Source: an uncultured Clostridia bacterium
GTDB taxonomy: Bacteria; Bacillota; Clostridia; TANB77; CAG-508
Assembly: GCA_934167965.1 (NCBI GenBank)
Contig: CAKPMJ010000002.1
Coordinates: forward strand, 90,907-154,906
DNA: 64,000 bases
Direction: 5' to 3'
Part shown: positions 3,981 through 57,645 of the stretch, piece by piece
Layout of the letters: the number at the start of each line of letters is the position of its first letter
How positions within the stretch are numbered: position 1 is the first letter of the stretch
Notes under the pieces: generated by a model
Databases searched by the model: none
What the model was told of the DNA's origin: nothing
The model's input: only the letters and a program-made list of their open reading frames with translations
Translations under genes and position numbers: made by a program

Positions 3981-4793
3981 TTATGCACTCTTAAGTTCTA
4001 ATCTTAGCTTATCAGCAATCATAGCAATGAACTCGCTATTTGTAGGCTTACCCTTTGCTGCTGATACTGTATAACCAAATATATTCTCCATTATAGTTGG
4101 TTCTCCTCTGCCCCAAGCAACTTCTATTGCATGGCGAATTGCACGTTCTACTCTTGATGGAGTAGTGCTAAATTTTTGAGCAATTTGTGGATATAAACTT
4201 TTAGTAATCTGATTTATTACATCAATATCATTTATAACCATAATTATAGCTTCTCTTAAGTACTGATATCCTTTTATATGTGCTGGTACACCAACTTCAT
4301 GAATCATGTTGGTAACCAAGGCTTCTAAATTCTCGTTTCCTTTCATGTTATTTATTTCTATGTATGATCTTTGAGTTGTTTCCCTTGAAATGAAATTATT
4401 ATTAGGCATTGGTCTAAAGTTTTTAATTTCTCTAATTCTCCTAATTAATAATTCAATGTCAAAAGGTTTTACTACATAGTATTCTGCTCCTAACGCAATT
4501 GCTTTTTGCGTTATTTTGTCTTGACCGACTGCTGATAACATAATGCAAATTGGCTTTTTTATTACATTACTATTATTGATTCTTTCTAAAACTCCTAGTC
4601 CATCTAAATGTGGCATTATTACATCTAATATTGCTACATCTGGTGATAATTCTTTCACTTTTTCTACAGCTTCTACTCCATCTTTTACCATTCCTACAAT
4701 TTCCATATCCTCTTCATTTTCTAGATATGTTGCAAGAGTTCTACTAAACTCTTCATTGTCATCTGCAATTAATACCGTAATTTTCTCTTTCAC
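3981..4793 (-). CDS. spo0A: Stage 0 sporulation protein A (Spo0A)
   Basis: Receiver domain (LIADDN...D56-like) plus the Spo0A-specific C-terminal domain: [14 protein letters not shown]...[19 protein letters not shown]...[17 protein letters not shown]. Confidence 0.95.
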
Positions 4794-24734: not shown

Positions 24735-25601
24735 TCAAAATATCATATTTCCCTTATCTCTTATCTTCATTCTGTATTCATTTATTTTATATCCACAAAA
24801 ATTTACTCCTTGTTTTCCTTTAAATATTTGTGTTTTTTTATTTAATTCTAACTGTAATTTTTCTTTTAAAAATTTTGTTATTTGCTCTAGTGCATTTTTT
24901 GCCTCCTGTTTTGTTTCTACAATTAATACACTGTCATCTAAATACCTCGCATAATATTTTATATGTAATTTATGTTTTACAAATTGGTCTATTTCATTTA
25001 AATAAATATTTCCAAACATTTGAGATGTATAATTTCCTATTTCTAATCCTTTTTTTCTGGACTGTGAATATAATATTTCTTTTATAAGCCATATTATTTT
25101 TTTGTCTTTTATTTTTCTTTCTATTATTTCTAATAATATTTTTTTATTTATATTATCGAAATATTTGGCTACATCCATTTTTAATATATAATAATTTTTC
25201 CATTTATTTTTTGCTTTTTTCATACATGATTGTACATACAATGCTGCTCTATGCATTCCCCTTCCTTTTAAACAAGCATAAGAATTACTTATAAACGTTG
25301 GTACAAATGCTGGTTCTAAAAAGTTATCTACTAACCATCTATGTACTATTCTGTCTATATACCTAGATTTTTCTATTTTTCTTATTTTAGGTTCTGTTAC
25401 ATAAAATACTGTATATCCTCCATGTTTATATGTCATATCTTTTAATTTTTTATATAAATACATTATATATTCTTCTTGTTTTAAATAAAAATTTATATTT
25501 TCTATTCTATATCCTTTTCCCTTTTTAGATTTTATGTGTGCATCCATTAATTTTTCATAACTTAATTTTTTGTCATATTCATTTCTTATTGTCTTTGGCA
25601 T
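24735..25601 (-). CDS. Diversity-generating retroelement (DGR) reverse transcriptase
   Basis: RVT_1 domain with YARYLDD (YxDD) and the DGR-specific motif-4 variant LEIGNYTSQMFGNIYLNEID (IGxxxSQ instead of QGxxxSP). No maturase or endonuclease domain; N-terminus ...EPKIRKI...DRIVHRWL is typical of bRT-like RTs. Confidence 0.8.
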   Translation of the reverse strand: MPKTIRNEYDKKLSYEKLMDAHIKSKKGKGYRIENINFYLKQEEYIMYLYKKLKDMTYKHGGYTVFYVTEPKIRKIEKSRYIDRIVHRWLVDNFLEPAFVPTFISNSYACLKGRGMHRAALYVQSCMKKAKNKWKNYYILKMDVAKYFDNINKKILLEIIERKIKDKKIIWLIKEILYSQSRKKGLEIGNYTSQMFGNIYLNEIDQFVKHKLHIKYYARYLDDSVLIVETKQEAKNALEQITKFLKEKLQLELNKKTQIFKGKQGVNFCGYKINEYRMKIRDKGNMIF

Positions 25602-25962
25602 AATATTTTAATAATCCCCCTATTATTTTTCCTATTTCATATATCTGTTCTATTGCAATATTAAATTTTTTATTATCTATCCATCTGTTTTTATACATTA
25701 TTCTTAAAAATATTCGTTGAGTATTAAGCTCTGCATCTATTGCATTTATTATATTTAGACAATCTTTTGTTTCTTGTATTTTGCTTATATATAATACATC
25801 TTTTATCATTTTGTACATACTTGTTTTATATTCTGTCCCTATACTGAACTTTTCTATTCTTGGTATTTTTATTATTAAATTAATCATATATTCTACGTAT
25901 TTTTCTGTTTTAGGTATTAATATTAATTTATTTTCTTTTTCCTTATTCAATCTATTCACCAA
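25579..25962 (-). CDS. Avd-like accessory variability determinant (four-helix-bundle protein, PF05635-like)
   Basis: 127-aa basic helical protein overlapping the RT start by 23 nt. It resembles the four-helix-bundle/23S-IVS protein family (…AELNTQ…EIGKIIGGLLKYY). Confidence 0.65.
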   Translation of the reverse strand: MVNRLNKEKENKLILIPKTEKYVEYMINLIIKIPRIEKFSIGTEYKTSMYKMIKDVLYISKIQETKDCLNIINAIDAELNTQRIFLRIMYKNRWIDNKKFNIAIEQIYEIGKIIGGLLKYYAKDNKK

Positions 25963-26161
25963 CTTCTATCTCTAAATATCTTTCTAATGCAATTTCATAA
26001 TTCGTTTTTTCTTTGTGAATATTTTTAAGACATTCACTACATTTTTTATTTAATAATACCGCATCTTCTCCTATTGCAATATAAAATGCACCACATGATA
26101 CTAATATTATTTCATTTATATATATTTCTTTTAGTTTTAATATCATTTCATAAAAATTCAT
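25952..26161 (-). CDS. Small hypothetical ORF (69 aa) between the DGR target and avd
   Basis: ORF only; overlaps the avd start; function unknown. Confidence 0.3.
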   Translation of the reverse strand: MNFYEMILKLKEIYINEIILVSCGAFYIAIGEDAVLLNKKCSECLKNIHKEKTNYEIALERYLEIEVGE

Positions 26162-26288
26162 CTTTTATCATTCCTTTCTTTCTAAAAAAGGTGATATGCT
26201 ATTTTTTTGAACAAAAAAATAGCACACCACGCTAGTGGTGCACCACGCTAATTGCATTCGCTAATTATTATTAGCTTCTAATTTCCTA

Positions 26289-26373
26289 TATTTTCATAGC
26301 AATAGCCTTTTCTAGGTTATCGCTTTTAGAGTTCAGACCTACTTTATATAAAGTGTGAGGCGAGTAGAATAGT
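26289..26373 (-). repeat. Conserved post-VR element (IMH-like GC-rich block CTCGCCTCACAC, stop codon, 3' UTR), copy 1. The other copy, with one mismatch, is at 55861..55945.
   Basis: Direct comparison of the two loci. Confidence 0.7.
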
Positions 26374-27589
26374 TGGTGCTAGTATAGAGTGGACCGTCGT
26401 CGCTGCGAAGGCTAGGTGAATTGCTAATGCCGTGAAAACCACCACTGTAAGTACGACTGTAAGTGCTGTACGCCTCTAATGTCCACTCTAAACTATTTCC
26501 CAATAAATCATATATATTATTTAACTTATCTGTTGATACTGTTCCTGTTTTTCGCGTTGTATTTCTACTTGTTTTTACTCCTTCTAAATTTTTTGGAGTA
26601 GTTGATGTTACATCTATTCCATTTCCTTGCATCCACATCATCATTTGATCATATTGACTTCCCCATATCATACTACTTCCTACTACATTTGTTAATTTAT
26701 TTTTTCCACTATATTCTTTATCTTTTTGATATAATCCATACCATGTATTTGCACTACTAGTTTGCGCTGTTGCTGAAGTTGCTCCTGATACTGATTGGGC
26801 ATTTTTGGATGTTTCATTTAAACTAGTTTCATATCTTCCTACATAAAATCCTTTATTTTTTCCTACATATTTTATCATCTCATCAAATTCATTTTGTAAT
26901 TGTGTTTTCCACTTAGTTAGTATTTCTTCATCTGTTCCATTTAATCCTACTATATTTTTTAATAATCCAATTCCTTTTGTATCATCTCCTGTTACAGCAT
27001 CTCCAATTGTTGGATTTGATAAATAATCTGGTTCTCTCCTTCCTGTCACACTTGTCAATGCCATTATTCCTGATGTTTCTGTCCAGTTTAATGCTGTATA
27101 TCCACCTGAAGTAAAATCATAAAGTTTTCCTAGTTTCTTTCCTTCTGCATTTGTACCATACATTTTACTTACATCTTTTACTGGTACCCATACAAATTCA
27201 CTATTATCTGGGGCTACTACTACTATTCCTTTTTTTACTTCTGTTGGTGAATCTTCTTTTATTTTAAATCCTACTGGCACTACTATAGTTTCTCCATTAT
27301 CATCTTGTAATTTTGCTTTTCTTCCTTCTATAATTTTATTTTTATTGTCTTTTACCTTTCCTAAATTTCCTGTACTTTCCTCCATTAAGATTTCTAGATC
27401 TGTTAAGTCTTCTGTTTCATTTGCTTGTGCTTGCTCTGTTTTTGTTTTAGCCTCTGCTGCCTTTTTTAATATTCCATTCTCTCCTGATAGCATTGCTATT
27501 GCTACTCCTGCTAATATCAATAACACTATTATTGTTATTACTAGTGCTATTAATGTTATACCTTTGCTGGTATTTAATCTTTTTGTCAT
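26339..27589 (-). CDS. DGR target protein 1: pilin-like N-terminal signal/anchor plus C-terminal FGE-sulfatase/CLec-fold domain carrying a variable region
   Basis: N-terminus KGITLIALVITIIVLLILAGVAIAMLSGENGIL (type IV pilin/pseudopilin-like class III signal). C-terminus FYVGRYETS...NTWYGLYQ...SSMIWGSQYDQMMMW...NIYDLLGNSLEWTLE...RGG (FGE-sulfatase/CLec motifs). Its 3' end is a VR relative to the paralog at 55911..57149. Confidence 0.8.
   Translation of the reverse strand: MTKRLNTSKGITLIALVITIIVLLILAGVAIAMLSGENGILKKAAEAKTKTEQAQANETEDLTDLEILMEESTGNLGKVKDNKNKIIEGRKAKLQDDNGETIVVPVGFKIKEDSPTEVKKGIVVVAPDNSEFVWVPVKDVSKMYGTNAEGKKLGKLYDFTSGGYTALNWTETSGIMALTSVTGRREPDYLSNPTIGDAVTGDDTKGIGLLKNIVGLNGTDEEILTKWKTQLQNEFDEMIKYVGKNKGFYVGRYETSLNETSKNAQSVSGATSATAQTSSANTWYGLYQKDKEYSGKNKLTNVVGSSMIWGSQYDQMMMWMQGNGIDVTSTTPKNLEGVKTSRNTTRKTGTVSTDKLNNIYDLLGNSLEWTLEAYSTYSRTYSGGFHGISNSPSLRSDDGPLYTSTNYSTRLTLYIK
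26374..26510 (-). other. DGR variable region VR1 at the 3' end of target 1
   Basis: Locally GC-richer segment. It aligns gap-free with 55946..56080 and differs at 32 of 98 core positions, while both flanks are identical. Confidence 0.75.
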
Positions 27590-28111: not shown

Positions 28112-29860
28112 TCATTTCTTTGCTAATATTTTTTCAAATTCTTTAAATCTTTTTACTTTTTGAGTAGTAGTCTTTTCAAGTGGCTCAGTTGTTATTATTA
28201 ATTCTTTTATTCTCTTAAATACTGGTAAGCTCTTATTTATTTCTTTTATATCTTCCCATACCAAGTTTTTATATTCTTTTTCTGTTTTATCGCCGAATTT
28301 TTCTTTTATAATTTCTGGATCATATACTAATTTTATTCCTAGACTAATTTCTCCTTTTGTATTTTCTCTTGGATATAATATACTTTCTGTAACATAAGGT
28401 AATTTATTTACTAAGAATTCAATGTCACTTGGAAATACATTTTCACCATTTTTTAATACTATCACATCTTTCTTTCTTCCAGATATAAATAAATATCCAT
28501 CTTTATTATAGTATCCTAAGTCTCCTGTATGGAACCATCCATCTTTCATAACACTTTCTGTTGCTTCTGGGTTCTCATAATATCCAAGCATAACATTAGG
28601 TCCTTTTACAACTATTTCTCCAACACCATTTTCATCAACATCTTCTAATTTTAATTCAACATTATATGGTGCCATTCCTACACTTCCTGGGCATTTTTGT
28701 TTATCTGTTTCAGCTGCAACTAATGGTGATGTTTCTGTTAAACCATATCCTTGAACTGTTTCTATACCAAAACTGTTGTATCCATCTATTACTTTTTTAT
28801 CCATTGCTGCTGCTCCAAAATATGCTATTCTTAAATTCCCTCCAAGTTGATCTAACACACTTTTAAATAATTTTCTTCTTACATCTATATGTAGTTTTAA
28901 TAATCCATTGGCTAATCCACTCATTGTATCAACTAGTTTTGCTTTTCCTTGATCTTCTATAGATTTTCTTATCTTTTTATATATTGTTTCTAATACTAAT
29001 GGTACAGCAACAAATACACTTACTTTATATTCTACTAAGTTCTTAGCAATATATTTTAATCCATCACAAAATGCTACTGTAACTCCACTATAAAATCCAT
29101 ATAAAAATGTTATTGTGCATTCAAATGTATGATGTAATGGTAAAAATGATAATAAGACATCATTATCATACATTTTAGACATCTTAGCCATAGCAATTAT
29201 ATTAGATGTAATATTTTTTTGTGATAACATTACACCTTTTGCCATGCTTGTTGTTCCTGATGTAAATATTAATATACTCATTTTATTGTTATCAATTTTC
29301 ACATCTGCATATCTATGGTCACCATCTTCTATTTTCTTCATTCCTTGTTCAACTAATTCTTTAAATGATAATATACCATTTTCCTCTTTTTTCAAGTCCA
29401 TATTTATATAGTATTTTATTGTTTCGTTTTCTTCTCTTATACTATTGAAAACTTCGTTATATTTATTTTCATATATAACAGCATCAACTTTACTTCTTTC
29501 AATTAGATTTTTTATTTCTTGTTCTGGTAATGCTTTATCTAATGGCACTACTACCATATTAGATGTTGTTATTGCAAAATAACTTTCACACCATTCATAT
29601 CTATTATTTCCTATTAATGCAATTTTTTTATTTTCCAATCCTAATTCAAGTAACATTGTTCCCAATGCTTCTACTTCTTTTTTTACCTCTGAATAAGTTT
29701 TTTCTATTACTTTTTGATTCTTCTTCCCTAAGTTTTCTTTAAACTTGTATGCTACATTATTTGGGTATGTTTCACAACTATGGTTTATTAACTCCCTAAA
29801 ATTATTAATTTCATAAACTTCATAAAGATTACTATTTAATTTTTTCATTTTTCCCTCCAT
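28112..29860 (-). CDS. AMP-dependent synthetase/ligase (long-chain acyl-CoA synthetase, FAA1-type)
   Basis: AMP-binding motifs (IFTSGTTSMAKGV; GYGLTETSP; TGDLGYYNKDGYLFISGRKKD; VKRFKEFEK). Confidence 0.85.
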   Translation of the reverse strand: MEGKMKKLNSNLYEVYEINNFRELINHSCETYPNNVAYKFKENLGKKNQKVIEKTYSEVKKEVEALGTMLLELGLENKKIALIGNNRYEWCESYFAITTSNMVVVPLDKALPEQEIKNLIERSKVDAVIYENKYNEVFNSIREENETIKYYINMDLKKEENGILSFKELVEQGMKKIEDGDHRYADVKIDNNKMSILIFTSGTTSMAKGVMLSQKNITSNIIAMAKMSKMYDNDVLLSFLPLHHTFECTITFLYGFYSGVTVAFCDGLKYIAKNLVEYKVSVFVAVPLVLETIYKKIRKSIEDQGKAKLVDTMSGLANGLLKLHIDVRRKLFKSVLDQLGGNLRIAYFGAAAMDKKVIDGYNSFGIETVQGYGLTETSPLVAAETDKQKCPGSVGMAPYNVELKLEDVDENGVGEIVVKGPNVMLGYYENPEATESVMKDGWFHTGDLGYYNKDGYLFISGRKKDVIVLKNGENVFPSDIEFLVNKLPYVTESILYPRENTKGEISLGIKLVYDPEIIKEKFGDKTEKEYKNLVWEDIKEINKSLPVFKRIKELIITTEPLEKTTTQKVKRFKEFEKILAKK

Positions 29861-39420: not shown

Positions 39421-40110
39421 TTAATTATTTTCTTGTATTTTATATTGGCTAATATCAGGCTCTACAAATATACTATCATCTACATTGTCAAATTCATAAT
39501 AATATTCTGCAACTATTGCTTCTTCTGTTCCATCTTCTTTTACCGAGTATCCATTATTTGCTTTTAATGTAAGACCTGTTTGCTTTTGTATATATGCATT
39601 ATCTGCTATTAATGATTGAACAAAGTAACACTCTTTTCCTTCATATTTTACAGTTTTTATTTTACTCATAGCAGCTAATTTAAATAAACTCCATAAATTA
39701 TTCTCATAATCAAATCCCATAATCATAATTTGAGATTGTACTTCATCCTTATTAGCACCTAGCATCGCTATTTTAGAATCTTCAACATCTATATAAGTAT
39801 TTACTGTGTCTCCTTTGGTATATTGCATTAACTTTCTATTTTTACCTGTGTCTTTTTCTTTTAAAGTATATATCATCAAAGCATTCTCATCTTTTAAATA
39901 AAACTCTGTCATACCTCCAGAATTATTTACAATTTTTTCATAATGATTATTACTATTTATGTACTTTGAAACTTTATTGTTTAAATCTCTAATTATAATC
40001 ATCTTCCTAATTGTTATTGCTAAAAAAATAATTATCGCAATTAATATAAATAATAAAATAATTTTCAATACTTTCTTTTTATTCATATAAATTCCTCCTT
40101 TTCTAAGCAA
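39421..40110 (-). CDS. Hypothetical membrane-anchored protein
   Basis: N-terminal TM; no recognisable domain. Confidence 0.5.
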   Translation of the reverse strand: MLRKGGIYMNKKKVLKIILLFILIAIIIFLAITIRKMIIIRDLNNKVSKYINSNNHYEKIVNNSGGMTEFYLKDENALMIYTLKEKDTGKNRKLMQYTKGDTVNTYIDVEDSKIAMLGANKDEVQSQIMIMGFDYENNLWSLFKLAAMSKIKTVKYEGKECYFVQSLIADNAYIQKQTGLTLKANNGYSVKEDGTEEAIVAEYYYEFDNVDDSIFVEPDISQYKIQENN

Positions 40111-40298
40111 CCTTGCAATTCTGAGCTATTATATAATCTTTAGACCATTGGCTTTTCGTCATAAACTTTCATTTACTTTGCTTTTTAACCTATTTCTATT
40201 ATACCATATTTTAGCTTTTTTTTGCAAATGAGAACTTTTCTATAATAAAAAAAGTGAATTTCTGTTAATACAGTTTTTCACTTTTTTCTTAATTTACT

Positions 40299-45158: not shown

Positions 45159-45563
45159 CTATTTTCCTCCTAATTCCTGCAAGCAGTGGATAGCCTCTTC
45201 TTTACCAAATCCTATATTTTTCATTCCTTCTAGGTAATTTTCTATTTTTTCTTTTGCCAATTTTCGTTTTATCTCTTCAATTAATTCATCATTATTTGTT
45301 ACAAATTTTCCATTGGTTCTTTCAGTGTAAAGTAATCCTTCATTTTCAAGTTCTGTTAATGCTTTTTGCATTGTATTTGGATTTACTCTTGCTGTAAGTG
45401 CTAGCTCTCTTACAGACGGAATTCGTTCTCCCTTTTTTAACTCACCAGATACAATTTGTATTCGCAACATTTCTACTAATTGAATATAAATTGGCCTTTC
45501 ATCATCAAAAATATATTTCACAATATCTATCCTTTCTATTATTGTATTACTTGCATAATACAA
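45159..45563 (-). CDS. GntR-family (YtrA-subfamily) transcriptional regulator
   Basis: Winged HTH (ERIPSVRELALTARVNPNTMQKALTELENEGLL); short C-terminus typical of YtrA; leads the ABC operon. Confidence 0.85.
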   Translation of the reverse strand: MYYASNTIIERIDIVKYIFDDERPIYIQLVEMLRIQIVSGELKKGERIPSVRELALTARVNPNTMQKALTELENEGLLYTERTNGKFVTNNDELIEEIKRKLAKEKIENYLEGMKNIGFGKEEAIHCLQELGGK

Positions 45564-45613: not shown

Positions 45614-45642
45614 GTTGTCAAAAAGGAACGTCCCCATTGACA
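45614..45642. repeat. 29-nt palindromic motif, copy A: TTGTCAAAAAGGAACGTCCCCATTGACAA
   Basis: 7-nt inverted arms TTGTCAA/TTGACAA around a 15-nt asymmetric core. Other copies at 57180..57208 and 49616..49682; degenerate copy at ~50829..50851. Confidence 0.7.
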
Positions 45643-45861
45643 ATAAGTTTGTATCTCACCAATCCCTTTTTCTATGTATTGCCTAACTTCATTATTTTCA
45701 ATATTCATTTTTTTGTAAGCATCAAATATCAAATTATATATTTCTTGTTTTGACTTATTTTTAAATTTCTCATATATATTTTGTACATCATTCAAATCTA
45801 ATTTTAATTCTAAATAATCTCTACCTGCTAATATACATCCTATTGCCTGTACTAAAACAAT

Positions 45862-52210: not shown

Positions 52211-53917
52211 TTATCCTTGTAATATTTTTTCCATCTCAACTTTTCTTTTTATTTTATGAGTTGTAGTCTTTTCAAACTCTTCATCTGTTATTAATAGATT
52301 TTTTATCCATTTATATTTTGGCATTGTTCTATTAACTACTTTTACTTCTTTCCATATAAGCTCTTTAATCTCATCTTCCGTAAGGTTTCCATATTTTTCT
52401 TGTATGTAATTTTTATCATATACAACCTTTACACTTACAGTTATGTCTTTATCCTTAAAATCTTCAGCACCATAAACCATTGATTCATCAACTAATGGAG
52501 AATTATTTAACAAAGTTTCTAGCTCTTCTGGATATACATTTTTTCCATTTGATAAAACAATAACAAATTTCTTTCTTCCTGAAATAAATATGTATCCATC
52601 TTTATCAATTTTTGCATAATCTCCTGTATGAAGCCATCCATCTTCTGTAAAAGCCTCTTTATTCGCTTCATCATCTCCAAAGTAACCTAGCATTACGCTA
52701 TCACCTTTTACAAGTAATTCGCCTACTCCTGTTTTTTCATCAACTTCATCTAATTTAACTTCTACACTTGGTAGTTTCTTTCCGATAGAGCCTATTCTTC
52801 TTTGATTTGTAAGCTCTGCTGCAATTACTGGTGATGTCTCTGTCAAACCATATCCTTGTAATAAATTAAATCCTAAGTCAAAAAATCCTTTTTCTACTTC
52901 TGGGCTTAAAGCTGCTCCTCCAGCAACCATAACCTTAATCTTTCCACCTAAGTTTTGATGAATATCTTTAAATAATCTTTTACGTACATCTATACCTACT
53001 TTAGATAAAATGTTGCTCATTTTTACTGCTGTTTTTACTGTTCCATCTTTACCTTTATCTTTTATTCCTTTTAGTAACTTTCCATACATTTTTTCATATA
53101 CAACTGGTACACAAATCATTGCAGTTATTCCAAATGTTTTCAATTCATCTGCAATATGTCTTACACCTTTAGAAAATACAATACTTGCTCCAATTGATAT
53201 TGGATATAAAAATCCTACTGTACATTCAAATGTATGATGTAATGGTAAAAATGATAATAATATATCTTCATCAGTAAGTTCAAAGGATTCTTGGATATCC
53301 ATAATATTAGTACATATATTTTTATGAGATAGCATTACTGCTTTTGATTTATTTGTTGTTCCTGATGTAAATAACATTATTCCCATTTCTTCGTTATTGA
53401 TTTCTGCATCTATAAATTCCTTATTTCCGCTATCTACTAATTCTTTTCCTTTTTCTAATATCTCTTTTAGAGAATATTTATCAAATACATGTTTTTCTAA
53501 ATCCATAGAAATAAAATATTTTAATTTTGAATCTCCCTTTTTTTGGATGTTTGCCATTGCCTCATCATATTTATTTGAATAGACTATAGCTTCAACTTCT
53601 GAACGCAAAATTAAACTTTCTATTTCATTTTCTGGTAATGCCTTATCTAAAGGTACAACTACACCAACTCCTGTAGCAATAGCAAGATATGCTAATTCCC
53701 ATTCATATCTGTTTTCACCTATTACAGCTATTCTTTTACCTTTTAAGCCCATTTCTATCATTGCAGTACCTAAATAATTTATTTCTTCTCTGAATTGTTT
53801 ATGTGTAATTTCTCTTACTCCAGATTTTTCTTGTAATAAATATGCTTTTTTGTCTCCATATTTTTCACCTGTCTGTTTTAACATATCTTTTAAATCTTTA
53901 AATTCCATAGTTCTCAT
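52211..53917 (-). CDS. AMP-dependent synthetase/ligase (long-chain acyl-CoA synthetase), paralog of 28112..29860
   Basis: LFTSGTTNKSKAV; GYGLTETSP; TGDYAKIDKDGYIFISGRKKF; C-terminal KIKRKVEMEK. Confidence 0.85.
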   Translation of the reverse strand: MRTMEFKDLKDMLKQTGEKYGDKKAYLLQEKSGVREITHKQFREEINYLGTAMIEMGLKGKRIAVIGENRYEWELAYLAIATGVGVVVPLDKALPENEIESLILRSEVEAIVYSNKYDEAMANIQKKGDSKLKYFISMDLEKHVFDKYSLKEILEKGKELVDSGNKEFIDAEINNEEMGIMLFTSGTTNKSKAVMLSHKNICTNIMDIQESFELTDEDILLSFLPLHHTFECTVGFLYPISIGASIVFSKGVRHIADELKTFGITAMICVPVVYEKMYGKLLKGIKDKGKDGTVKTAVKMSNILSKVGIDVRKRLFKDIHQNLGGKIKVMVAGGAALSPEVEKGFFDLGFNLLQGYGLTETSPVIAAELTNQRRIGSIGKKLPSVEVKLDEVDEKTGVGELLVKGDSVMLGYFGDDEANKEAFTEDGWLHTGDYAKIDKDGYIFISGRKKFVIVLSNGKNVYPEELETLLNNSPLVDESMVYGAEDFKDKDITVSVKVVYDKNYIQEKYGNLTEDEIKELIWKEVKVVNRTMPKYKWIKNLLITDEEFEKTTTHKIKRKVEMEKILQG

Positions 53918-55657
53918 TTATTCTGTTCCTTTCTCATTTTCCTGTTTTAATTTTAAATATCCCAATTCATTCCAACTATTATATGCTAAGTTCAATCTAA
54001 ATACAACTTTAGGTTTAGCTCCTGCTCTATTTTTATCAACAACACATGCATAATATCTAACATCAGGGTCATCAAATTTTTCTAAGTCATAAAATTTTGT
54101 ATCTACTTCTTTTAATGAATATTCATATTGGTCTAATGTGCTTCTTGGTATTTGTTTTATTAAACATAATGTATCTAATACCTCTTTTACTGTTCTACTA
54201 GCAGATAAATCATTTACATCTAAGTTTATAGGCAATGTTGCACTTTCTGTTAATTGAAGTGTTGACCCTATAAATATATTAAAGTCTTGCGCTAAATTTG
54301 ACAATATTGTTGCTGTTTTCTTTACCTCTTCTCCATTTCCAATATGTGCAGTATCTGTTTTTAATGTATCATAAAACATATATTGTATTTGTTCTTTATA
54401 ATAATAATTTTTTATTACTTTGCTTAATTCATCATTTGTATGATCTGTAATGTTTATAAAATATATTGCATTGTTTACTTGAGTATTTAACCAATCTGTA
54501 GCTTTCAATGTTTTATTAAAGTCTGATGAATATTTTTTTAATTTTTCTATAAACTCTGTTTGTGTTTCTTTTTTATTTCTTGCTATATAACCATTTTCGT
54601 CTATTTCTACATCATCTTTATTATCTGGTCTAAATTTTAATTCTAGTAATTCACCTTCGCTAATCTTTATTTTTTGTCCATGTATTTTTTGAATCTCTGG
54701 ATTATTTATAATTGTTGTAATCAAACATAGCTTCATTTTTTCTTCTGACATTTCATTTGAAATTACTAACACTTTCTTTTTATGTACAAAAGCAAGATAT
54801 GCGGCTAAATTTATTGTAAATCTACTTTTACCAGAGTTTGATGGCATTGCAAAAGCTGTTGTTTCTCCTCTTCTTATACCTTTAAACACACTTGATAATA
54901 TATTAAATGGTAAATTAAGACCTTTGGCTAAGTTATTTTCTCCTGCTGTCAAAAATTCTGTTATTCCTTCATTTAATACAGCTTGTTTAAATTTAGCTGT
55001 TACCTGTGCCTGATTCACTGCGCTTTCAACTTCCTCAATTGACATTTGGTCATATAATTCATAATTTACTATATCTACAATTTTATTTTGAATTGATTTT
55101 ATTGGTATTTCTAAATAACTTTTTCTTAATATAAATAATTTCTTTAGTTCAACATAAACTTTTTCAAAATCTATTCTTTCATTTTCGACTTTGTTTTTTA
55201 AATCTAATTTTAGTTGATATGACTCTTTTGTATCTTTTGCAAAATTATAATTTCTTTTTGCTTTTTCAGAGGCGTATTTATCACCTTCTGTAAATAAAAC
55301 ACTTTTATATAAATTTAATATCTCTTGATTTGCAAAATAATTTTCTTCAAATACAAAATAGTACATACTTATAGATTTAGGGTCATTCAACAAAAGTCCC
55401 ATATATTGCTCTTCAAGTTCTTCATTCATCAACGCATTTGGGTATATTTGCCCTTCTTCTGTTAAATAATCATCTTCTATTTTTTCCTCTTCTTCATCTG
55501 TTTTGTTTTCTTGTAATTTTTTTAATTCATATACTGCTTGCTCAACTTCATCGTTGTCTAACATTTCTTTTATCTCTTCTAATTTTTCTCTATTTCCCTT
55601 TGTTACAGGAATTGCTTTTAATAATTGATACATTTTTTCTTTTATTTCAGGATTCAT
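53918..55657 (-). CDS. Divergent DnaB-family helicase-like protein (N-terminal DnaB_N-like plus RecA-like C-terminal domain)
   Basis: YMGLLLNDPKSISMYYFVFEENYFAN (DnaB N-terminal pattern). Walker A-like GETTAFAMPSNSGKSRFTINLAAYLA. C-terminal VVDKNRAGAKPKVVFRL (DnaB KqRnGptG-like). Stop TAA abuts the ATG of the downstream ligase gene. Confidence 0.55.
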   Translation of the reverse strand: MNPEIKEKMYQLLKAIPVTKGNREKLEEIKEMLDNDEVEQAVYELKKLQENKTDEEEEKIEDDYLTEEGQIYPNALMNEELEEQYMGLLLNDPKSISMYYFVFEENYFANQEILNLYKSVLFTEGDKYASEKAKRNYNFAKDTKESYQLKLDLKNKVENERIDFEKVYVELKKLFILRKSYLEIPIKSIQNKIVDIVNYELYDQMSIEEVESAVNQAQVTAKFKQAVLNEGITEFLTAGENNLAKGLNLPFNILSSVFKGIRRGETTAFAMPSNSGKSRFTINLAAYLAFVHKKKVLVISNEMSEEKMKLCLITTIINNPEIQKIHGQKIKISEGELLELKFRPDNKDDVEIDENGYIARNKKETQTEFIEKLKKYSSDFNKTLKATDWLNTQVNNAIYFINITDHTNDELSKVIKNYYYKEQIQYMFYDTLKTDTAHIGNGEEVKKTATILSNLAQDFNIFIGSTLQLTESATLPINLDVNDLSASRTVKEVLDTLCLIKQIPRSTLDQYEYSLKEVDTKFYDLEKFDDPDVRYYACVVDKNRAGAKPKVVFRLNLAYNSWNELGYLKLKQENEKGTE

Positions 55658-55910
55658 ATTTTTTTTCCTCCTAGTATTTGTTCTTGCTTATTATATCATT
55701 TAGTTTTTTGTATTTCAAGTATTTTGTTAATAAATACTCCTGTATATATTTTTTTCATACTAATCTTGGTAAGCCTTTATTAACAAAAAAATTAGCCAAA
55801 ATCCTTAAATTTACTTTAAGAATTATTTGACTAATTTTTCCTTCTTTTATTAATTTTCTATATTTTCATAACAATAGCCTTTTCTAGGTTATCGCTTTTA
55901 GAGTTCAGAC

Positions 55911-57149
55911 CTACTTTATATAAAGTGTGAGGCGAGTAGAATAGTCGCTGCTAGTAAGGTACGGATGGTTGTTGGGGCGATTGCTAGGTGAAAAGCTAAG
56001 GCTGAAATAACCACCTCTGAGAGCACGACGGCTAGTGTAGTTCGCCTCTAATGTCCATTCATAACTATTTCCTAGTAAATCATATATATTGTTTAATTTA
56101 TCTGTTGAGACTGTTCCTGTTTTTCGTGTTGTATTTCTACTTGTTGTTACTCCTTCTAAATTTGTTGGAGTTTTTGATGTTACGTCTATTCCATTTTCTT
56201 GCATCCATATCATCATTTGATCATATTGACTTCCCCATATCATACTACTTCCTACTACATTTTTTATTTTATCTTGCCCACTATATTCTTTATCTTTTTG
56301 ATATAATCCATACCATGTATTTGCACTACTTGTTTCTGCTGTTGCCGATGCTACGCCAGATATTGATTGAGCATTTTTTGTTTCTGTGTTTAAACTTGTT
56401 TCATATCTTCCTACATAGAATCCTTTATTTTTTTCTACATATTTTATCATTTCATCAAATTCGTTTTGTAATTGTGTTTTCCATTTCGTTAGTATCTCTT
56501 CATCTGTTCCATTTAAACCTACTATACTTTTCAATAAAGCTATTCCTTTTGCATCATCCCCTGTTATTGCATCTCCATATGCTGTACTTGATAAATAGTC
56601 TGGCTCTCTGTAGTCTGTTGCACCTGTCCATTTCATAACTCCTGATGTCTCTGTCCAACTATTCGCTCTATATCCACTTGAAGTAAAGTTATAAAGTTTT
56701 CCTAGTTTCTTTTCTTCTGCATTTGTTCCATACATTTTACTTACATCTTTTACTGGCACCCATACAAATTCACTATTATCTGGTGCTACTACTACTATTC
56801 CTTTTTTTACTTCTGTCGGTGAATCTTCTTTTATTTTAAATCCTACTGGCACTACTATAGTTTCTCCATTGTCATCTTGTAATTTTACTTTTCTTCCTTC
56901 TATAACTTTATTTTTATTGTCTTTTACCTTTCCTAAGTTTCCTGTACTTTCTTCCATTAAAATTTCTAAATCTGTTAAGTCTTCTGTTTCATTTGTTTGT
57001 GCTTCTTCTGTTTTCATTTTAGCATCTGCAGCCTTCTTTAATATTCCATTTTCTCCTGATAGCATTGCTATTGCGACTCCTGCTAATATCAATAACACTA
57101 TTATTGTTATTACTAGTGCTATTAATGTTATTCCATTGTTTTTCTTCAT
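55911..57149 (-). CDS. DGR target protein 2 (paralog of 26339..27589) with a distinct C-terminal variable region
   Basis: Same pilin-like N-terminus (NGITLIALVITIIVLLILAGVAIAMLSGENGIL) and FGE/CLec domain. The C-terminal ~45 aa differ (…EANYTSRRALRGGYFSLSFSPSNRPNNHPYLTSSDYSTRLTLYIK). Confidence 0.8.
   Translation of the reverse strand: MKKNNGITLIALVITIIVLLILAGVAIAMLSGENGILKKAADAKMKTEEAQTNETEDLTDLEILMEESTGNLGKVKDNKNKVIEGRKVKLQDDNGETIVVPVGFKIKEDSPTEVKKGIVVVAPDNSEFVWVPVKDVSKMYGTNAEEKKLGKLYNFTSSGYRANSWTETSGVMKWTGATDYREPDYLSSTAYGDAITGDDAKGIALLKSIVGLNGTDEEILTKWKTQLQNEFDEMIKYVEKNKGFYVGRYETSLNTETKNAQSISGVASATAETSSANTWYGLYQKDKEYSGQDKIKNVVGSSMIWGSQYDQMMIWMQENGIDVTSKTPTNLEGVTTSRNTTRKTGTVSTDKLNNIYDLLGNSYEWTLEANYTSRRALRGGYFSLSFSPSNRPNNHPYLTSSDYSTRLTLYIK
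55946..56080 (-). other. DGR variable region VR2
   Basis: See VR1; mismatches are confined to this block. Confidence 0.75.
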
Positions 57150-57179: not shown

Positions 57180-57208
57180 TTGTCAAAAATGAACGTCCCC
57201 ATTGACAA
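57180..57208. repeat. 29-nt palindromic motif, copy B (TTGTCAAAAATGAACGTCCCCATTGACAA), 30 nt upstream of the target-2 start codon
   Basis: 27/29 identical to copy A. Confidence 0.7.
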
Positions 57209-57324: not shown

Positions 57325-57344
57325 GTGTGTGTGTGTGTGTGTGT
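57325..57344. repeat. (GT)10 dinucleotide microsatellite
   Basis: Read directly: GTGTGTGTGTGTGTGTGTGT, ~175 nt upstream of DGR target 2, between divergent genes. Confidence 0.9.
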
Positions 57345-57645
57345 ACAGCCTCAACGGTTCTAGCTTTTTTCATCTTTTACACCAACTTTCTACTTTATTC
57401 TTTTTATATTTTACTAAAACATCATTTTCTTGTAAATACTTTTTGCCAATTTATTTAAAAATTTGTATAATTTATAGTACACTAAAATTATAACTAACAT
57501 TAATTAATAAAATTCTGCAAAAATGTTTCAAAATTTTTCCAATAAATACATCTATAAATTATTGCAATTTCAATGATTTTGTAATATAATAGTTCTATAT
57601 AAATTTCATAAAATCATTATAAATTTTTTAGGAGGATGAAATTAT

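Follow-up and report, generated by a model that had tools for sequence, protein, structure and literature searches.

What rewrote the 3' ends of two related genes in an uncultured gut Clostridia bacterium, and is it still at work in this genome? The question is raised by a 64,000-nt stretch of DNA (the window: contig CAKPMJ010000002.1, positions 90,907 to 154,906), in which two paralogous genes on the minus strand end in repeats, here termed variable repeats VR1 and VR2, that differ at many scattered positions and are followed by nearly identical sequence. The pattern almost certainly stems from a diversity-generating retroelement (DGR). In a DGR, RNA of a template repeat (TR) is copied, adenines are mutagenised in the process and the resulting cDNA replaces the VR of a target gene. 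More specifically, we consider it likely that VR1 and VR2 belong to a decayed DGR of the type target-MSL-avd-RT-TR (MSL, MutS-like gene; RT, reverse transcriptase gene) and that they are probably static. The genes and repeats in question are:

26339-27589, minus strand: target gene 1, 416 amino acids (aa), whose hydrophobic N-terminal helix is prepilin-like and whose C-terminal domain, of the C-type-lectin/FGE-like kind, has VR1 at its end.
26349-26475, minus strand: VR1, a TR-homologous stretch of 127 nt, aligned without gaps to the TR of a relative (L006:6064-6190); the mutagenised zone is ~26374-26471.
55911-57149, minus strand: target gene 2, 412 aa, paralogous to target gene 1 and with VR2 at its 3' end.
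55921-56047, minus strand: VR2, a non-adjacent variable repeat ~29.6 kb from VR1.

The two target genes share 88.7% DNA identity over 1291 nt, and both repeats stop 10 nt short of the stop codon of their gene. A gap-free comparison of 26374-26471 with 55946-56043 (n = 98 positions) yields 66 identical and 32 different positions, the same count that a first-pass annotation of the window had given. Counted along the forward strand, the mismatches lie at positions 1, 3, 12, 13, 15-17, 21, 22, 25, 28, 30, 31, 36, 37, 48, 49, 55, 58, 60, 61, 63, 71, 75, 76, 79, 85, 87, 88, 93, 94 and 97, and every adjacent pair that the annotation had listed is among them. At 25 of the 32 variable sites at least one copy has a T on the plus strand; the 26 sites reported earlier have to be corrected to this number. 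In the coding frame the variable sites are distributed over the first, second and third codon positions as 18, 12 and 2, respectively.

The search for the template covered the 64-kb window, and the TR used here is a surrogate, taken from the closest intact relative, which comes from another metagenome. When the window was scanned at the positions invariant between VR1 and VR2 the best non-self score was 55/127, and at the non-A skeleton of the template the best non-VR score was 37/74. Moreover, avd overlaps the RT gene of the cassette next to target gene 1, and thus no TR lies between these two. The 90% cluster of the window RT holds intact RT versions, and in the closest relatives a TR with the 3' end CTCTAATACAAATTCAG is found ~20 nt after the RT stop codon (L001:1152-1278, RT 94% identical; L006:6064-6190, RT ~96% identical). 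The L001 TR was given up in favour of the L006 TR, as at least 10 of its non-A mismatches are common to both VRs; in L006, the DNA of avd and RT is 98.2% identical to the window. The pattern of positions common to both VRs and the L001 TR had no match in genome_contigs, JGI metagenome_contigs and IMG/VR, collections that do not contain the species, and the same pattern recovers the window and L001-L003, i.e. it works as a control.

Against the L006 TR the origin of the differences becomes apparent. Of the 32 VR1/VR2 differences 29 fall on template adenines (Fisher one-sided p = 4.7e-11). VR2 differs from the template at 23 positions, all of them adenines, and VR1 at 25 positions of the 124-nt TR/VR homology, 22 of them adenines. 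The non-A positions are matched at 73/74 by VR2 and at 70/74 by VR1, the next-best site in the window being the one with 37/74. The first-pass annotation had regarded a TR whose non-A positions disagree with the invariant VR positions as evidence against a DGR; by this measure the DGR reading stands, the surrogate TR fitting VR2 at all of these positions within the homology and VR1 at all but three. The adenine-mutagenesis footprint that the annotation had proposed is likewise borne out, both by the 29 differences on adenines of the surrogate TR and by the bAvd and RVT_1 genes downstream of target gene 1. As judged from these alignments, VR1, beside the cassette, and VR2, 29.6 kb away, are two independent outputs of one template.

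The established sequence of DGR steps can be applied, by analogy, to this family. In the intact relatives, RNA from the ~125-nt TR just downstream of the RT gene would be reverse-transcribed by RT together with Avd, random bases would be inserted opposite template adenines, and the cDNA would replace the matching 3' stretch of the target genes, bounded by a GC-rich element, CTCGCCTCACAC. The L006 TR contains 51 adenines and, over 40 codons, 18 AAC/AAT codons, so that mutagenesis would recode 29 of the last ~40 target codons. This corresponds to ~10^28 possible peptide variants, with a stop codon possible at one codon only.

In this genome the machinery next to target gene 1 is incomplete. Downstream of the target, the minus strand carries the MSL open reading frame (ORF), avd and RT, in this order, followed by a small ORF and rpmE:

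25952-26161, minus strand: MutS-like (MSL) accessory gene, 69 aa (Pfam MutS_I, E = 8.7e-5); 136 aa in relatives.
25579-25962, minus strand: avd accessory gene (Pfam bAvd PF22296, E = 8.4e-17, 62 bits vs a cut-off of 40; NCBIfam DivGenRetAVD, E = 9.2e-19).
24735-25601, minus strand: DGR reverse transcriptase, 3'-truncated, 288 aa (RVT_1, E = 1.8e-19).
24740-24750, minus strand: deletion junction between GATAAGGGAAA and TATGATATTTTGA, downstream of which both the TR and the final 53 codons of the RT gene are lacking.

Nearly all of the 120 RT relatives listed are 336-337 aa long. The homology of the window RT to its closest relatives stops, on both protein and DNA level, after residue 284 (position 24748), inside the run GATAAGGGAAA, i.e. 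an A-tract in the RT gene is where the deletion begins. For the intact orthologue of the window RT, the closest solved relative is the RT of the Bordetella phage DGR (8ub7, E = 1.6e-35), to which it aligns over its full length. Since its own homology ends at residue 284, the window RT lacks approximately the last 50 residues, which correspond to the thumb. Neither the RT C-terminus (KRKLKKKVKYLTNQIH...) nor the TR was found anywhere in the 64-kb window, where a BLAST search with the RT 3' end and TR of L007 retrieved only the two VRs. The MSL gene has suffered as well: it carries an in-frame deletion of 201 nt (67 codons) between two copies of a 16-nt repeat, and its BLAST blocks vs L006 overlap by 16 nt at 26041-26056. 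In the 136-aa orthologue, MutS_I reaches E = 3e-10. From these comparisons it is evident that the cassette has decayed in this genome, with 53 RT codons (the thumb) and the TR removed and MSL shortened by 67 codons.

A second, independent deletion is found in L010. It spans 493 nt, from the RT C-terminus across the TR into the beginning of the next ORF, and involves an 11-nt microhomology at the same A-tract, AAGGGAAAAA, in which the window deletion starts (window 24740-24750; L010:1892-1902). The sequence downstream of the window junction gave only weak, AT-rich alignments with the downstream region of L007 or L010, and the idea that it is homologous to that region was dropped for this reason.

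The sequences on either side of the mutagenised zone bear on the question of how the two genes came to share their 3' ends. The relevant elements are:

26353-26364, minus strand: GC-rich element CTCGCCTCACAC, 12 nt, resembling an initiation of mutagenic homing (IMH) element, at the 3' end of VR1; common to both VRs and to the TRs of L001 and L006.
26279-26348, minus strand: 3' flank of target gene 1, conserved and past the TR homology, comprising the final codons, the stop and the 3' untranslated region.

The first-pass annotation had described both flanks as completely identical. This holds for the upstream side, where the 14-mer GCCTCTAATGTCCA (26472-26485) is the same in both copies, whereas on the low-coordinate side 2 of 95 positions differ (26279-26373 vs 55851-55945). 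The 14-mer lies outside the TR homology save for its last few bases and encodes a W-T-L-E motif that is conserved in the lectin fold. At TR position 125, two bases past CTCGCCTCACAC, the TRs have a C and every VR has a T, and we therefore take the TR/VR homology to end at 26352. The proposal that mutagenic retrohoming has homogenised the flanks does not hold: identity of the targets extends ~70 nt past this end, and the 14-mer is mostly outside the TR. As the paralogues stay near-identical over 26279-26351, a stretch without a TR counterpart, retrohoming does not explain the identical flanks and, going by the extent of TR homology, can only be the cause for the last ~20 bases of the repeat.

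The 3' flank is near-identical in target gene 1, target gene 2 (55851-55920), L006/L009 and L105, and we tentatively interpret it as either a recombination tract or a cis element under conservation. At its start, right after the target stop codon, a motif GTAG-nn-CTGA-nnn-CT with an invariant TG recurs across 40 relatives (26325-26341 and 55897-55913 in the window); this CTGA-centred motif could be the target-recognition element of this DGR lineage. In phage BPP-1, a GC-rich hairpin with a GRNA loop, located 4-34 bp from the VR and beyond the TR homology, is required for target recognition (PMC3240598). An imperfect hairpin is predicted in the window ~29 nt beyond the end of TR homology, its energy being not unusual (z = -1.46), and RNAalifold over the 40 relatives gave no consensus structure downstream of the VR. 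A conserved hairpin at this position was set aside as a candidate, none being alignable over these relatives.

The host is a low-GC (27%), spore-forming member of the Clostridia, recovered from human-gut metagenomes, and the window matches a metagenome scaffold of 371,860 bp (ERZ28614304 scaffold_10). The truncated RT junction, the 69-aa MSL ORF and the rpmE context are present together in 13 contigs from several human-gut studies, including metaSPAdes-style NODE, k141-named and Logan contigs, from which we conclude that the deletion is real and widespread. ERZ4567950 and ERZ27286955 are among the further samples with this allele. In several of these contigs VR1 and VR2, each with its own flanks, are 100% identical to those of the window. 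VR1 is also identical in L013 and L014, which were retrieved through the RT and not through the target, and it is invariant in the three consensus assemblies that can be checked without circularity. None of the samples with the truncated allele has a recorded intact RT of the same 90% cluster. With the template and the end of the RT lost next door, VR1 and VR2 are probably frozen relics; we thus favour, with some reservation, the view that both repeats are now static and the cassette is presently inactive.

Two variants of the target-2 locus might seem to contradict a static VR2. L104 has a different VR beside a following 4.9 kb identical to the window, which could be taken as diversification of VR2 after truncation of the RT; this was rejected since all 140 differences are spread over the whole gene (13%), as expected from an allele swap or an assembly chimera. 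The L104 allele corresponds to P0141, a member of a tandem array of target-like genes in L105. In L102, the last 300 nt at the target-2 locus are identical to target gene 1 of the window. L102 (1-1560) and L104 (1-900) are either assembly chimeras or real recombinants, and both switch at the shared 3' flank. As their differences are genewide or look chimeric, these variants are evidence neither for nor against DGR activity.

Several points weigh against the interpretation as a decayed and static DGR. The template used stems from another metagenome and stands in for the cognate TR, which was not seen, and VR1 departs from this surrogate at three non-A positions (T>C at 42, T>C at 87 and G>C at 100). 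The target backbone differs from L006 by ~6% and avd plus RT by ~2%, so that three such changes do not exceed what is expected from ordinary divergence. Nearly the same strain is present in all samples with the truncated allele, and intact relatives likewise have identical VRs across samples; identical repeats are therefore no proof of inactivity. Nor does the RT remnant exhibit clearly relaxed selection, the ratio of nonsynonymous to synonymous substitution rates (dN/dS) being 0.33 vs L006 (18 substitutions) and 0.05 vs L010, and this ratio was abandoned as a test because the substitutions are too few. Finally, within a genome of which 64 kb could be searched, a trans-acting DGR copy elsewhere is possible, as metagenome-assembled genomes (MAGs) of this clade often have several RT loci.

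This last point amounts to an alternative of its own, in which the adjacent cassette is a dead duplicate and VR1 and VR2 are diversified in trans by another, intact DGR of the same genome whose TR is near-identical. Action of DGRs in trans on non-adjacent targets is established (PMC5758913), several MAGs of the clade hold two or three RT loci, and in metagenomes of relatives two intact cassettes occur at different loci (L001 and L008, from one sample). In the window, the IMH-like element and the conserved 3' flank are intact at both targets, and the reading frames of avd and of the RT remnant are still open. Set against this are the lack of a recorded intact RT of the same 90% cluster in samples with the truncated allele and the invariance of VR1 in the three assemblies mentioned; moreover, the TR skeleton of a more distant DGR would not be the same, so that such a DGR could not write VR1 and VR2. 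Altogether, we regard an intact trans-acting copy as a possible but clearly less probable explanation than a static system.

Two further explanations would do without a DGR or without a deletion. The C-termini of the paralogues might have diverged without any retroelement, by point mutation under diversifying selection or by gene conversion in a multigene family; the family is indeed multigenic, with whole-gene allele differences and mosaics (L102, L104, L105), and the backbones of the paralogues differ by ~11%. Yet with either process one would not expect 29 of the 32 differences to coincide with adenines of a template that was identified independently (p = 4.7e-11), nor every non-A position of VR2 within the TR homology to stay unchanged. 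Moreover, avd and RT genes adjoin target gene 1 and most relatives examined exhibit the same TR/VR relation, and we thus regard this explanation as very improbable. Even less credible is that metagenome assembly, most plausibly through a chimeric join at a repeat, produced the RT truncation, the lack of a TR or the sequences of the VRs as artefacts. The window does match a metagenome scaffold (ERZ28614304 scaffold_10), and the shared 95-nt 3' flank is able to mislead assemblers, L102 and L104 having the appearance of such joins, but the same RT junction, 69-aa MSL ORF and rpmE context are found in 13 contigs of several studies, including contigs of the NODE, k141 and Logan types, with VR1 and VR2 and their own flanks 100% identical in several of them. 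The decayed DGR with two adenine-mutagenised targets remains the explanation that we prefer.

A TR/VR arrangement of this kind is common among relatives of the RT. The RT has 118 relatives in GTDB, the best with 77% identity, in MAGs of uncultured Clostridia from human, chicken and rabbit guts. Of the 54 relative loci examined, 40 have a TR-like stretch that closely follows the RT. With few exceptions this stretch corresponds to the 3' end of a gene ~1-2 kb upstream of the RT, the mismatches being almost exclusively at template A. Two or three RT loci per MAG are frequent in this clade, and L001 and L008 are two intact cassettes at different loci of one metagenome sample.

What, then, was diversified? 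An AlphaFold2 model of target 1, calculated from an alignment of 44 homologues, has a mean predicted local distance difference test (pLDDT) score of 90.5, and its Foldseek matches in the PDB are FGE and C-type-lectin (CLec) folds with modest E values of 1e-3 to 2e-2. Among them are the three solved DGR variable proteins, Mtd (1yu0), TvpA (2y3c) and TaqVP (5vf4). A Pfam scan of the target proteins gave no domain over threshold, the signals of N_methyl and of FGE-sulfatase being weak (FGE-sulfatase in target 1, E = 0.046). On the basis of the model, the target 1 protein carries a C-type-lectin/FGE-like fold.

The N-terminus of the targets weakly resembles a type IV prepilin signal. A sequence G10-I-T-L-x-A-L is invariant in the 44 homologues, with Ala at position +5, where the class III signal G/FTLxE (cleavage after G) has Glu. 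N_methyl scores 18.0 and 13.1 bits in the two targets of the window, i.e. below the cut-off of 21.2, and reaches E <= 0.01 in 20 of the 44 homologues; moreover, pilin N-termini were matched in a profile search of PDB sequences (E = 0.004-0.05). Among the scanned ORFs of the window there were no pilus genes, and a literature search found no paper linking DGRs to type IV pilins.

The target family is large, with more than 7,700 matches among 8,000 candidates scored, and among the 120 matches listed none has a Pfam domain over the part shared with the query. The target genes form a multigene family with tandem copies (e.g. L105:1785-4760).

From these features we tentatively speculate, without considering it probable, that the target family is modular and resembles type IV pilins, a prepilin-like N-terminus and a long helix being combined with a hypervariable lectin head, and that the DGR family may diversify the binding tip of type IV filaments in uncultured monoderm gut Clostridia. 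Loss of TR and thumb at the A-tract, as in the window and in L010, might in addition be a recurrent way of freezing a chosen specificity, and frozen alleles may be shuffled between loci via the conserved 3' flank. A search of the literature found no description of DGRs diversifying type IV filament tips in such bacteria.

Some observations were made in the surroundings of the two targets. A 29-nt palindrome, TTGTCAA-N15-TTGACAA, occurs in two near-identical copies in the window, at 57180-57208 and 45615-45643 (2 matches vs 0.06 expected). The former lies ~30 nt upstream of the start of target gene 2, with no counterpart upstream of target gene 1, and the latter is upstream of an ORF (45159-45563) that precedes ABC-transporter genes; the palindrome could be an operator for a shared regulator. 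Further upstream of target gene 2, a run of (AC)10 (~57325-57345, minus strand) is located inside a possible short leader ORF (MKKARTVEAVHTHTHT...), and the homologous site of L105 (~4540-4580) has a long (GA)n run instead, i.e. a simple-sequence repeat that could give rise to phase variation. Directly downstream of target gene 2, a 579-aa protein with only a weak DnaB_C match is encoded (53918-55657, minus strand), which is 100% conserved in several samples. Paralogous genes for AMP-binding enzymes (28112-29860 and 52211-53917, 70-74% DNA identity) adjoin the two target loci in differing relative order. Apart from these, a c-di-GMP-I riboswitch (40103-40191, minus strand; 45.1 bits, over the gathering score) is found directly upstream of an ORF without a Pfam match (39421-40110).

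The locus leaves the known understanding of how DGRs work unchanged, and its mechanism and parts match those of known DGRs. It provides, however, a well-resolved natural case of DGR decay, in which two targets keep the adenine footprint with both template and RT thumb lost; this allele is present in human-gut metagenomes of several studies. Screens that rely on an RT plus a TR would miss or misclassify decayed loci of this kind, and orphan VRs can be mistaken for active hypervariation. Additionally, the data point to lectin-headed surface proteins of gut Clostridia as DGR targets; these form a family that is large and unannotated, and their N-terminus is possibly pilin-like.

Compared with the BPP-1 DGR (mtd-avd-TR-brt) the similarities lie in the components and in the product. 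Both systems have Avd and an RT, the intact orthologue of the window RT aligning over its full length with the Bordetella RT (bRT), and in both the TR/VR differences are adenine-specific, the VR forms the 3' end of a gene for a protein with a C-type-lectin fold and a GC-rich element is located at the 3' end of the VR. The gene order is target-avd-TR-RT in BPP-1 and target-MSL-avd-RT-TR here, and the window differs further in its chromosomal context, its two targets, the missing RT thumb and the lost TR. The IMH of BPP-1 consists of a 14-bp GC element and a 21-bp element (PMC3240598), whereas here the 12-nt CTCGCCTCACAC is shared by VRs and TRs, and the GC-rich hairpin with a GRNA loop described for BPP-1 was not confirmed. 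A distant blastn search of the cassette against phage records gave no match, and an association of the cassette with a phage was dropped on these grounds.

Among DGRs of the human gut, those of Bacteroides that act on type V pilus adhesins (bioRxiv 10.1101/2024.11.15.621889) resemble the system discussed here in that they diversify surface proteins that are probably adhesive, although phylum and target architecture differ and the N-terminus is only weakly type IV prepilin-like in our case. The DGR of Treponema denticola with its variable protein TvpA shares the use of one TR for several targets at different loci and a variable protein with an FGE/CLec fold (2y3c being among the fold matches); its accessory gene is of the HRDC type (PMC5758913), in contrast to MSL plus Avd here, where the second target is only 29.6 kb away. 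A further correspondence is to DGRs with an MSL gene (architecture D of Wu et al. 2018, PMC5758913), to which that of Legionella belongs. The host differs, being an uncultured gut Clostridia bacterium, and the MSL of the window, with 69 aa and its 67-codon deletion, is below the range of 112-283 aa given there (PMC5758913). In common, however, are the small MutS-domain-I-like gene combined with avd, and non-adjacent targets like that carrying VR2 are common in chromosomal MSL-type DGRs (PMC5758913). Thus, by its gene content, the cassette is an MSL/avd-type DGR as described by Wu et al. 2018 (PMC5758913).

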